The translations under genes were made by a program, and so were the position numbers. This document shows, piece by piece, positions 7,697 through 17,705 of a stretch of 44,441 nt of DNA. The stretch lies in the IMG/VR virus record IMGVR_UViG_2778261530_000005, one strand, 5' to 3'. This stretch comes from a virus (Duplodnaviria; Heunggongvirae; Uroviricota; Caudoviricetes). Each line of letters opens with the position of its first letter. Positions within the stretch are counted from its first letter, which is position 1. Below the pieces are notes generated by a model. It did no database searches. It saw only the letters and a list, made by a program, of their open reading frames with translations, and had not been told where the DNA came from.

Positions 7697-8091
7697 AATT
7701 ATCTCCATTTTTACAAATGAATTTTGTCGATGCGGTGCCTGGTGCCTCCAGGTGACGTTAACCAGTTAACAATTAACGCCGGATAATCCACCCATAACAC
7801 TGATGCTTTTAACTGTGCCGCGTGCGCTTAGCCGCATTCACCGCATCACAAAATTCACTTTAAAAAGGGGCGGCAGGGCAGCCACGGAGTAGAACTGATG
7901 CCGCCAAAGACTAGACACAGCAATGTCGTTATTTACAACCGGAGGCGCACTCCCACCATTTAAATTTAACAGACAAGACCGACTCTTTATGAATACCGGA
8001 AATGCGCCTTCGTGTTGTGCGCCTGTCTTTTTACCACTTCAGGCTCGGTGGTATACTGGAGTTCTCACACAACCAGTAATAAGGTATTCCT

Positions 8092-14689: not shown

Positions 14690-15066
14690 TCACTATTACC
14701 AAAGAGCGACTGCAATGGCTGGCTAACATTTCTGGCCGCGATGACATTGACGATATAGACGGCGGTGAAATTCGTGAACTGGCGCTTATCGCACTGGCAT
14801 CGCTGGAGGCAGAGCCGGTTGGTGAGTTTTATGAATACAAACCGGGTGACTGGTATCAGCGTTCGGTCGGGGATAAAGCGCCAAAGTGGGTGCCGTTATA
14901 TGCAGCTCCACCAGCACCTGGCAACCAGGTTGGCGAATTAACAATGTGGGTTAAACGACTGGTCAGTCAACTGAAAAAAGCTAATCCAGACTGCAAATTA
15001 CCGGAGAAGGCGATGGACTACCTGAAGCGGAACGAACTGATAAGCGCGGAGGATGTTTTGCGATGA
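14686..15066 (+). CDS. Hypothetical phage protein
   Basis: 126-aa ORF, start overlapping the HNH stop. Confidence 0.45.
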   Translation: MITITKERLQWLANISGRDDIDDIDGGEIRELALIALASLEAEPVGEFYEYKPGDWYQRSVGDKAPKWVPLYAAPPAPGNQVGELTMWVKRLVSQLKKANPDCKLPEKAMDYLKRNELISAEDVLR

Positions 15067-15146
15067 CTTGGCCTGAAGCATTCACAACGGCAGGAATCGC
15101 AATGGCGGTGGCGCTGGTGGTGTATTCGATTTGCCGCTGGGGATAA
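15063..15146 (+). CDS. Candidate 27-aa hydrophobic micropeptide
   Basis: Hand-translated MTWPEAFTTAGIAMAVALVVYSICRWG; ATG overlaps the preceding stop (ATGA); below ORF-track cutoff. Confidence 0.2.
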   Translation: MTWPEAFTTAGIAMAVALVVYSICRWG

Positions 15147-15356
15147 AAACGGTTTGCGGGAAAAGGGGAGTTAAGTAAAATTGCTGCGGGTGCTTGAGGC
15201 TGTCTGCCTCGGGCATGCCACTGTAAGGCAGACAGAGAAAAGCCCCGGTTAACATTACGCGTCCTGCAAGACGCTTAACATTAATCTGAGGCCATATCTA
15301 TGCTCTACACACATAGGTTAGCCTCTTACGTGCCGAAAGGCAAGGAGAAGCAGGCT

Positions 15357-15512
15357 ATGAAGCAGCAAAAGGCGATGTTAATCGCCCTGATCGTCATCTG
15401 TTTAACCGTCATAGTGACGGTACTGGTAACGAGGAAAGACCTTTGCGAGGTACGAATCCGAACCGGCCAGACGGAGGTCGCTGTCTTCACAGCTTACGAA
15501 CCTGAGGAGTAA
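15357..15512 (+). CDS. Hok/Gef-family type I toxin (HokD/RelF-like)
   Basis: 51 aa MKQQKAMLIALIVICLTVIVTVLVTRKDLCEVRIRTGQTEVAVFTAYEPEE: single transmembrane helix plus conserved Hok C-terminus; AAGGAG ribosome-binding site. Confidence 0.75.
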   Translation: MKQQKAMLIALIVICLTVIVTVLVTRKDLCEVRIRTGQTEVAVFTAYEPEE

Positions 15513-15579
15513 GAGACCAGGCGGGGTAAACCCCCGCCACCTCTGATGTGTCAGGCATCCTCAACGCACCCGCACTTAA

Positions 15580-15600
15580 CCCGCTTCGGCGGGTTTTTTA
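15580..15600 (+). terminator. Rho-independent terminator at the 3' end of the hok transcript
   Basis: CCGCTTCGGCGG hairpin followed by TTTTTT. Confidence 0.55.
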
Positions 15601-15761
15601 CTTTAACAGATCAAGTTTTAGCCGATTCACCAATTAAACAGACCTTCGTTTGTTGATAAGCGGGTATGCCTGACTAGAATCGATGCACTTAAGTAGCGCG
15701 CAGGGAGAAGAGGGATGGACCCCGAACAGGGGAGTGCTATTTATCTGGAAGGATTCTGTTG

Positions 15762-15935
15762 ATGAAAATCGAAGAATTGCGTGAAATTTTTAGTGAAAAT
15801 GGCCTCTATGCTGTGCGCGTTGAGAATGGGAAAGTTGTCTACACAACGTTAATCCCTGATGATCATGTAATTTTATCTATCGAGGCATTCATTGAATACC
15901 TTGAAAGGCTCGGTTTCAAGGTGGTTCGCGAATGA
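15762..15935 (+). CDS. Small hypothetical protein
   Basis: 57-aa ORF translated by hand (MKIEELREIFSENGLYAVRVENGK…); below ORF-track cutoff. Confidence 0.3.
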   Translation: MKIEELREIFSENGLYAVRVENGKVVYTTLIPDDHVILSIEAFIEYLERLGFKVVRE

Positions 15936-16594: not shown

Positions 16595-16884
16595 TGGTGG
16601 ATTTACGTAAAGCGGCGCGGGGGCAGATGTGCACCGTCAGAATTCCTGGCTACTGCAATCACAATCCCGAAACTTCTGTGCTGGCGCATTACAGGCTGGC
16701 GGGGACGTGCGGAACAGCGACAAAACCACACGATATGCAGGCAGCGATTGCCTGTAGCTCATGCCACGATCTAATCGACGGGCGGGTAAAAACCAGCGAT
16801 TACACCAAAGAAGAATTACGCCTGATGCATGCAGAAGGTGTTTTTCGCACACAAGAAATCTGGAGAAAGGAAGGTTATTTATGA
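16594..16884 (+). CDS. YbcO-like Cys-rich putative nuclease (DUF1364-like)
   Basis: 96 aa with several conserved-looking Cys/His; nin-region position preceding Q. Confidence 0.5.
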   Translation: MVDLRKAARGQMCTVRIPGYCNHNPETSVLAHYRLAGTCGTATKPHDMQAAIACSSCHDLIDGRVKTSDYTKEELRLMHAEGVFRTQEIWRKEGYL

Positions 16885-17435
16885 TTTACCCAACAAATAC
16901 AGGCAAAAGCGGGGAACACCTTCGTCTCACCACGCTGGAAAGTGTCTGGATTCAGGGAAAACTGCGCATGTGGGGGCGCTGGTCGTATATTGGCGGCGGT
17001 AAGACGGGAAATATGTTCAACCAGTTGCTGACCTCTAAAAAGCTGACAAAAACGGCAATTAACGAGGCGCTCCGGAGGATGAAAAAAGCAGGTCTGGACA
17101 AACCTGAACTTGAGGCTTTTTTGCGGGATATGATCAACGGCAAGCAAAAAAGCTGGCTGGTGCATTGTACTGATGCAGAGGCGTTATGCATTGATCGGGT
17201 GATTAGTGAAGTGCTGGCAGAACACCCAGGATTGATTTGTATCCTCCGGCAACGATATGAAGGGAGGGGGATGACTAAGCGCAAAATGGCTGAATTGCTG
17301 AATGATTCACACCCTGAGTGGTGTTACGCCACGTGCCGTAATCGCATAGATGCGTGGTTGAAAATGGCAGAGTTTATGCTCTATCTGCCGATGCGTGATG
17401 CATTCTCTTCCGGGGATCTAAAAACCGTCTGTTGA
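16881..17435 (+). CDS. Late-gene antiterminator (Q-like)
   Basis: 184 aa from MIYPTNTGK…; immediately upstream of a near-consensus promoter and short terminated leader, upstream of the lysis cassette. Confidence 0.55.
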   Translation: MIYPTNTGKSGEHLRLTTLESVWIQGKLRMWGRWSYIGGGKTGNMFNQLLTSKKLTKTAINEALRRMKKAGLDKPELEAFLRDMINGKQKSWLVHCTDAEALCIDRVISEVLAEHPGLICILRQRYEGRGMTKRKMAELLNDSHPEWCYATCRNRIDAWLKMAEFMLYLPMRDAFSSGDLKTVC

Positions 17436-17461
17436 CTCAATCTGTTATCCGGGGCTATATT
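17432..17461 (+). promoter_or_regulatory. Candidate late promoter PR'
   Basis: TTGACT (17432-17437, overlapping the Q stop codon), 18-bp spacer, TATATT (17456-17461). Confidence 0.55.
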
Positions 17462-17522
17462 CCTCACGCGCCAGCAAAATCTGGCGTCGGGATTGGCGTC
17501 CTGGATAGAGACCGCGACAGAT

Positions 17523-17548
17523 ACACGCCGCGAGCGTGTTTTTTATTG
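17523..17548 (+). terminator. Candidate tR' terminator, about 60-80 nt downstream of PR'
   Basis: ACACGC-CGCGA-GCGTGT hairpin followed by TTTTTTATT. Confidence 0.55.
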
Positions 17549-17705
17549 TCGTATGCACGCGCACATCTGAATTATGGTGGGCTGTGTGGGGGCGGAGAGA
17601 TCCGCGCCGGTCGGTTTCCCGGTTACGCCAACCCTGCACAGTTCACCACCAGATGATTGGCGTCGTCGGTGGTGAGTTATTAAGAAACCACCAGAGGGCG
17701 TCATT

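Follow-up and report, generated by a model that had tools for sequence, protein, structure and literature searches.

A putative complete hok/mok/sok type I toxin-antitoxin module at the nin-equivalent position of a Rac-like lambdoid prophage

The founding member of the hok family, hok/mok/sok (parB) of plasmid R1, mediates post-segregational killing and is controlled by an mRNA switch made up of the tac, fbi, ucb and dcb elements and by translational coupling of hok to mok (PMC9841398). The switch takes the R1 mRNA from a closed to an open form, the R1 Sok antisense RNA carries a free 5' tail opposite the mok start, and in the published view it is the translation of mok that matters, not its product (PMC9841398). 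A YUNR motif speeds the binding of Sok in R1, and R1 Sok and its chromosomal counterparts reportedly do not cross-talk. Among the chromosomal relatives of E. coli K-12, hokC/mokC/sokC (gef) has an in-frame mok that starts 57 nt upstream of hok, and its fbi region is replaced by IS186; hokD (relF) of the Qin cryptic prophage lacks the whole leader: tac, ucb, mok and sok are all missing, since relBE sequence runs right up to the hok SD.

The closest system characterised by experiment is hokW-sokW of Sakai prophage 5, the Stx2 phage Sp5 of E. coli O157:H7, which is situated in the nin-type region of a lambdoid prophage (Takada et al. 2021, PMC8621323). HokW is toxic; sokW RNA has been detected by northern blot with a probe of sense sequence (YO-592), and replacement of the sokW -10 box TAACCTA by means of primers YO-421/422 gave a 'pro-less' construct that became toxic (PMC8621323). 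On RecA-dependent induction, sokW vanishes and HokW appears about an hour before endolysin, and deletion of hokW-sokW causes a two-fold drop in phage release, with no growth phenotype in uninduced lysogens (PMC8621323).

Here we describe the segment 15154-15599 of a 44,441-nt stretch of Caudoviricetes DNA (IMG/VR record IMGVR_UViG_2778261530_000005), which is referred to below as the window. Judging from its sequence, this segment, which lies at the nin-equivalent position of a Rac-like lambdoid prophage, appears to represent a complete hok/mok/sok type I toxin-antitoxin module belonging to the hokD/hokW lineage, a reading to which we assign a probability of about 90%. The module as such is already known, being a textbook type I toxin-antitoxin system and an intact member of a well-known family. 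As a discovery it is small: the hokD/hokW lineage is annotated in most E. coli genomes and many Stx phages, and the locus is a 91%-identical copy of one already characterised by experiment (hokW-sokW).

The RNA elements of the hok family are all present in the expected order (tac, ucb, mok SD, mok frame, dcb, 3' protective hairpin, fbi and terminator; Table 1), and the identity of these parts is directly established. In contrast to K-12 hokD, which has a nearly identical 3' UTR, fbi box and terminator, the window copy has the leader, and in contrast to K-12 hokC, in which the leader elements follow the same order, it keeps fbi. It is the complete ancestral arrangement and shows, in intact form, K-12 hokD as it was before relBE replaced the leader. 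The R1 locus follows the same logic but differs in its mok, which lies 58 nt upstream and out of frame, in its plasmid replicon and in its role in post-segregational killing. With Sp5 hokW-sokW, to which it is ~91% identical at the DNA level over 96% of the locus, the window copy shares the Sok promoter stretch, the in-frame mok geometry and the tac and fbi boxes. The two differ at the C-terminus of Hok (TAYEPEE in the window, VDYESEK in HokW), in the target loop (CUCUACACA in the window, CUGAACA with a YUNR motif in Sp5) and 3' of fbi, where the window has a GC hairpin terminator of the hokD type and the Sp5-type locus lacks one at that position.

Table 1. Elements of the hok/mok/sok-type locus, with positions in the window
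Feature	Position	Strand	Sequence, pairing and remarks
Presumed hok/mok mRNA promoter	15154-15181	+	-35 TTGCGG (15154-59, weak), 16-nt spacer, -10 TAAAAT (15176-81)
tac (translational activator element), at the 5' end of hok mRNA	15188-15199	+	GGGTGCTTGAGG; start of the RF01794 model; pairs with 15559-15571 (full-length MFE) or 15240-15246 (truncated folds)
Conserved 5' hairpin, nested in the tac stem	15200-15235	+	perfect 10-bp stem, CTGTCTGCCT (15200-15209) / AGGCAGACAG (15226-15235)
Predicted Sok antisense RNA, ~77 nt	15232-15308	-	free ~15-nt 5' tail, long hairpin 15241-15293, U-rich tail GGGGCUUUUCUCU
ucb, anti-Shine-Dalgarno box of mok	15240-15246	+	AAGCCCC; pairs with mok SD (full-length fold) or tac (truncated folds)
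Hairpin complementary to the Sok terminator	15248-15286	+	between ucb and mok SD
mok Shine-Dalgarno site	15288-15292	+	GAGG(C); 8 nt before the ATG at 15300; invariant in 32 loci
Sok target hairpin	15296-15318	+	7-bp stem 15296-302 / 15312-18 with mok AUG, 9-nt loop CUCUACACA; truncated folds only
mok-type leader frame, 70 codons	15300-15512	+	in frame with hok; ATG 57 nt upstream of the hok ATG
Sok promoter	15315-15343	-	-35 TTGCCT (15343-38), 17-nt spacer, -10 TAACCT (15320-15)
dcb (downstream complementary box)	15321-15325	+	GCCTC; adjoins the Sok -10 box; pairs with mok SD in truncated folds
hok toxin gene	15357-15512	+	51 aa; SD AGGAG (15343-47); RefSeq name hokD
3' stem-loop	15520-15538	+	GGCGGGG-UAAAC-CCCCGCC; 94.6% paired in 32 loci
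fbi (fold-back inhibitory element)	15559-15571	+	CCTCAACGCACCC; duplex with tac -21.5 kcal/mol, part of the MFE fold
Intrinsic terminator of hok mRNA	15578-15599	+	AACCCGC-TTCG-GCGGGTT and T run; 7-bp stem with 5 GC pairs in the terminator scan

Spread and genomic setting

A megablast search with the 454-nt region found matches in 4721 of 5426 complete E. coli genomes, at a median of 2 and up to 9 places per genome, with the annotation 'type I toxin-antitoxin system toxin HokD'; one chromosome was 100% identical. In Stx2 phage records, at ~91% identity, the locus is annotated variously as MokW, as hok, as host killer protein or as 'host cell-killing modulation protein plus small toxic membrane peptide'. 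Close relatives with ~87% DNA identity were found in P1-like and IncY plasmid prophages. Near-identical loci of the E. coli type also appear in records labelled Acinetobacter idrijaensis (a 275-nt contig) and Xanthomonas pisi (a 431-nt contig), our loci L022 and L027, and one with 94% identity is found in 'Actinobacillus phage vB_Apl-pPE4' (PP818812.1); these three records likely reflect contamination or mislabelling.

In the 100%-identical RefSeq genome, the genes upstream of the locus are, in order, yebY, int, xis, ralR, recT, recE, kilR, a gene for an HTH repressor, ydaS, ydaT, a replication gene and ydaV, with several small genes, an HNH endonuclease gene and a gene for a hypothetical protein between ydaV and hokD. 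Downstream of hokD are genes for DUF1367, DUF1364, DUF1133 and ORF6N proteins, a holin and a lysozyme. The host element is a Rac-like lambdoid prophage that carries hok between the replication and late-control genes on the early-right strand. The placing of the locus in the nin region, made originally from the window alone, agrees with this gene order, in which hok lies between the ydaV-side replication genes and the DUF1367/DUF1364/DUF1133, holin and lysozyme genes, all of them transcribed from the hok strand. No stx genes were seen near the locus, and the host prophage, being Rac-like, is unlike Sp5. Between the repressor region and the Q-like genes, the hok terminator is the only convincing plus-strand terminator.

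Directly upstream of the module, at 15063-15146 (+), the window contains an unannotated ORF for a hydrophobic protein of 27 aa (MTWPEAFTTAGIAMAVALVVYSICRWG), whose ATG overlaps the stop codon of an upstream 126-aa ORF (ATGA). In loci of the Sp5 type and in others from E. coli (our loci L005, L013 and L027), an ORF whose product has 77-96% aa identity immediately precedes hok, and Sp5 hokW-sokW is preceded by this same small hydrophobic ORF. Its product could be a small membrane protein with a link to the hok module. On the other side, ~55 nt past the hok terminator, there is a strong promoter-like sequence (TTGATA-16-TAGAAT, 15653-15680, plus strand, 10 of 12 matches), followed by a 58-aa ORF (15759-15935) where RefSeq has only a partial pseudogene.

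The prophage boundary is contained in the first 2400 nt of the window, which encompass yebY (1-342), the SraC/RyeA and SdsR/RyeB sRNA pair (462-606), int and xis; the prophage is Rac-like yet lies beside yebY/ryeAB. A second type I toxin-antitoxin system of the window, ralR with RalA RNA, is found at 2168-2346. DicF sRNA was detected by Rfam (55 bits) at 7868-7919 on the minus strand, upstream of kilR in the leftward early operon. A cluster of plus-strand Rfam matches just 3' of the DUF1133 (Q-like) gene, comprising c4-a1b1 (17455-17507), isrK (17468-17544) and C4 antisense RNA (17570-17653), resembles a late-gene control module of the isrK/anti-Q type, and beside it is the promoter-like sequence TTGACT-18-TATATT (17432-17461).

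Hok, mok and the RNA switch

The preliminary description of the locus had proposed a 51-aa protein of Hok/Gef architecture, and this was confirmed. The peptide (MKQQKAMLIALIVICLTVIVTVLVTRKDLCEVRIRTGQTEVAVFTAYEPEE) combines a hydrophobic N-terminal membrane helix with a polar, Cys-containing C-terminal part (KDLCEV) and matches Pfam HOK_GEF (PF01848) over the entire profile (1-42 of 42, E=2.1e-23), with 82.1 bits against a cut-off of 22, thus exceeding the gathering threshold by 60 bits. It aligns without gaps to HokD, HokW and HokC and has the LCE motif in common with R1-type Hok. The number of identical residues is highest for K-12 HokD (50 of 51), followed by the 'phage Rac' Hok (49/51), Hok of the HokW type (46/51), HokC (40/51) and the R1-type plasmid Hok (21/51). 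Searches with NCBIfam Hok models, which represent the plasmid Hok and HokA subfamilies, gave scores below the cut-off (47.7 bits versus 73), and no sequence relative of the protein was found in PDB. The Pfam match, the Rfam match of the leader to RF01794 (see below) and the full set of elements together uphold the assignment of the locus to the Hok family of type I toxins.

An in-frame extension of hok upstream to position 15300 had been suggested to be mok-like, and it has the same geometry as the annotated mokC of K-12 (16751..16960, versus 16751..16903 for hokC). In Stx2a phage WGPS9, the annotated 'host cell-killing modulation protein' likewise starts 57 nt upstream of hok and in frame with it. 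The in-frame arrangement could be taken as unusual, but this idea was rejected: both the 57-nt in-frame form (the window, K-12 mokC and the Sp5 type) and the 58-nt out-of-frame form (R1-type, 'phage Rac', P1-like, hokB and Kluyvera loci) occur among close relatives. Such a mixture of mok frames fits the view that mok translation, not the mok product, counts.

A scan of 15050-15750 for the sigma-70 consensus reported neither the hok nor the sok promoter. The two sites that it did report, both on the plus strand, were TTAACA-18-TATGCT (15275-15304) and the sequence at 15653-15680 noted above. The hok promoter went unreported because its -35 box is weak, and the Sok promoter was missed because its 7 of 12 matches to the consensus are too weak; both promoters were therefore placed by homology. 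For hok, the position was set from the conserved 5' end of the mRNA, which would put +1 at 15188; at the same spot as the window's -10 box, homologues have TAGAAT, TATAAT or TACAAT.

The tac box at this predicted 5' end is conserved across the 32 aligned loci, which come from Escherichia, Shigella, Kluyvera, Pseudocitrobacter, Photorhabdus, Pantoea, Erwinia, phages and plasmids. The perfect 10-bp stem that had been noticed in the leader is real and is not a chance hairpin: it is 92.8% paired in the 32 loci, with both-side changes at 3 of 10 pairs. Its interpretation can be refined, in that it is a conserved 5' stem inside the tac stem and not an independent 'fold-back' element; the true fold-back pairing joins the ends of the mRNA (15188-15199 with 15559-15571). 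A terminator scan recovered the terminator that had been described after the Hok ORF. The stem-loop at 15520-15538 is the expected 3' end of the processed, active mRNA and would stop exonucleases, a role taken from the 3' stem-loop of R1 Tr-hok (PMC9841398).

Complementarity between the flanks of the mRNA goes past the presumed +1, with 15185-93 facing 15566-74 (TGCGGGTGC / GCACCCGCA) and a second stretch formed by 15170-76 and 15574-80 (GTTAAGT / ACTTAAC). This additional complementarity is absent from the Sp5-type locus and would matter only for transcripts started upstream, e.g. by read-through from pR.

Folding of the hok mRNA of the window reproduces the switch published for R1 hok (PMC9841398). 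The full-length RNA (15188-15600) has an MFE of -172.4 kcal/mol (z=-8.0 versus shuffles) in a structure that contains both the tac-fbi and the ucb-SD(mok) helices. When the 3' end is moved to 15545, 15550 or 15555, the MFE fold changes to one with tac-ucb and SD-dcb pairing; with the 3' end at 15560 there is no switch. In the truncated folds, the mok SD and dcb form a hairpin that has the mok AUG in its stem and a 9-nt loop just after the AUG. Both alternative folds are results of this computation, and the alignment shows the conservation and covariation of their helices. In the closed structure, 93.2% of the cells of the 32-locus alignment are paired, compared with 46-53% when the partners are slid by 1-3 columns. 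The tac-fbi helix is 90.4% paired in the 32 loci and has compensatory changes at 2 of its 12 pairs (UA to CG in 9 loci, GC to AU in 5). Pairing is 100% in all 32 loci for the ucb-SD, the tac-ucb and the SD-dcb helix; because these pairs hardly vary, those of SD-dcb not at all, it is conservation and not covariation that backs them.

The predicted Sok antisense RNA

The Rfam match of the leader is to RF01794, a family named 'sok antitoxin (CssrC)', and it lies on the plus strand (15188-15362), with 113.2 bits against a cut-off of 59 over the full length of the model (1-157). One could read this match as a free-standing small RNA antitoxin of the CssrC type that would make a minus-strand RNA unneeded, and both the family name and the full-length, high-scoring plus-strand match point that way. 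The consensus of the model, however, starts at the 5' end of hok mRNA (GGGUGCUUGAG) and stops at the hok start codon, so that what RF01794 represents is the sense strand of the hok/mok leader, with the tac box at one end and the hok AUG at the other, and not the antisense Sok. Moreover, a sense-strand RNA cannot pair with hok mRNA, there is no terminator between 15188 and the hok ORF, sokC and sokB of K-12 are annotated opposite mok, and sokW was seen with a probe of sense sequence. We thus regard a CssrC-type antitoxin as extremely unlikely. Equally, the RF01794 match was rejected as proof of an antisense RNA, because it lies on the hok strand and has its end at the start codon of hok. Used for automatic annotation, the family would place 'sok' on the wrong strand.

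The preliminary description had left the antisense RNA to a search of the minus strand. There, a Sok RNA is predicted by homology, with a promoter identical to that of sokW and a fold that consists of a 5' tail, a hairpin and a U-tail, so that at the sequence level a cis-encoded antisense RNA appears to be present opposite the mok start region. Its putative ends were set by analogy with the annotated sokC of K-12, which begins 9 nt into mokC and stops 50 nt before the mokC ATG. The predicted fold has a free energy of -24 kcal/mol (z=-3.1). From the hok ATG to the end of the -10 box (15314-15359, minus strand), the window is identical to the promoter region of Sp5-type sokW at 46 of 46 nt; all 32 loci have the same bases at positions 2 and 6 of the -10 box. 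The equivalent of the target of probe YO-592 is found at 15279-15308.

In all 32 loci, the Sok hairpin is more stable on the minus strand, by 5.5-10.8 kcal/mol, and its G-U pairs become A-C mismatches on the sense strand. This asymmetry, itself a result of the analysis, speaks for structural selection on the antisense strand. The hairpin of the window is 4-5 kcal/mol weaker than those of its nearest long-hairpin relatives because of one C-A mismatch. Across the family, the Sok terminator hairpin (15248-15286 in the window) comes in two discrete forms, always more stable as antisense: a long one of ~52 nt in the window and in Sp5, P1-like and Kluyvera loci, and a short one of 30-34 nt in hokC, hokB, R1-type and Photorhabdus loci, with 34 nt in the K-12 hokC locus compared with 52 nt in the window.

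Among homologues, no part of the leader varies more than the target hairpin, and the Sok tail and target loop are the part of the locus most divergent from Sp5. Given this difference between the window and Sp5 in Sok tail and loop, cross-neutralisation cannot be assumed; the divergence may serve to prevent cross-talk between hok copies. The YUNR U-turn motif, which is present in 20 of 32 homologues including the Sp5 type, is not present in the target loop of the window (CUCUACACA). We considered its absence as a sign of a defective copy and rejected this, as 12 of the 32 homologues also lack the motif; not being universal in the family, YUNR is therefore no test of membership.

The missing motif and the weak -35 box of hok nevertheless bear on the question of whether the locus might be a decayed, non-functional relic from which Hok is never made, like most chromosomal hok loci of K-12. 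Many chromosomal hok loci are inactive, and K-12 hokC and hokD are visibly disrupted, the former by loss of its 3' end to IS186 and the latter by loss of its leader. In the window, by contrast, the promoter -10 box, tac, ucb, the mok SD and ATG, dcb, the hok SD and ORF, fbi and the terminator are all intact and in register, and neither the hok nor the mok frame has a premature stop. In addition, the tac-fbi duplex has a free energy of -21.5 kcal/mol, equal to that of the functional Sp5 type, and the Sok promoter matches that of functional sokW base for base. Decay of the locus thus appears very unlikely, and an intact module remains the preferred reading.

Proposed mechanism and role in the prophage

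The mechanism that we propose for this module is drawn from the R1 and Sp5 systems and was matched element by element to the window; for the window copy, we infer from these relatives the start and end points of transcription, the processing, the toxicity and the biological role. A stable mRNA of ~412 nt (15188 to ~15599) would be made in a closed form, in which tac is paired with fbi and ucb masks the ribosome-binding site of mok, so that no translation takes place. Slow trimming of the 3' end toward the stem-loop at 15520-15538 would remove fbi, whereupon tac would pair with ucb and the mok SD would move into the SD-dcb target hairpin. In this open form, ribosomes would translate mok from 15300 and hok by coupling. 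In the quiescent prophage, the short and unstable Sok RNA (~77 nt), transcribed from its minus-strand promoter (15343-15315), would prevent translation of hok: its free 5' tail would bind the target loop and the mok start, blocking mok and hence hok, and the duplex would be marked for RNase III. Once the supply of Sok stops, the 51-aa Hok protein would enter the inner membrane and depolarise or kill the cell.

By analogy with hokW-sokW, the role of the module in the prophage would most likely be to respond to RecA-dependent induction, with loss of Sok allowing Hok to aid lysis and phage release. A functional module could instead serve in prophage stabilisation through post-segregational killing or, by abortive infection, in defence against other phages. 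Both roles are established for plasmid hok/sok, with R1 hok/sok reported to act against T4 (summarised in PMC8621323); the window has the same RNA circuitry as the plasmid systems, and P1-like and IncY plasmid prophages carry its ~87%-identical relatives. The one lambdoid-prophage copy studied by experiment, hokW, however, has the RecA-dependent expression, the two-fold effect on phage release and the lack of an uninduced growth phenotype described above, and, set against the loss of a plasmid, excision of an integrated prophage is a rare event. A role other than in lysis is therefore possible but, in our view, somewhat unlikely, and it touches only the biological role of the module, not its identity or mechanism.

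In practical terms, the gain from the locus is in annotation. RefSeq gives the hok CDS alone at this locus, where the mok frame, the Sok RNA with its promoter, and tac, fbi, ucb and dcb can now be placed to the base.

The orientation of the module allows a further, speculative suggestion. Since hok points the same way as the early-right operon and the Sok promoter is directed against that operon, the module might act as a sensor of induction: once the repressor is cleaved, antiterminated transcription from pR would cross 15147-15600, silence the convergent Sok promoter by interference and add hok transcripts. We put this forward tentatively and consider it rather unlikely. If true, it would explain the rapid RecA-dependent loss of sokW RNA in Sp5, which is so far unexplained, and the hok terminator would also serve the nin region as its first strong terminator. 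Variation in the Sok tail and in the target loop would then keep the several hok copies of a genome from cross-talk.
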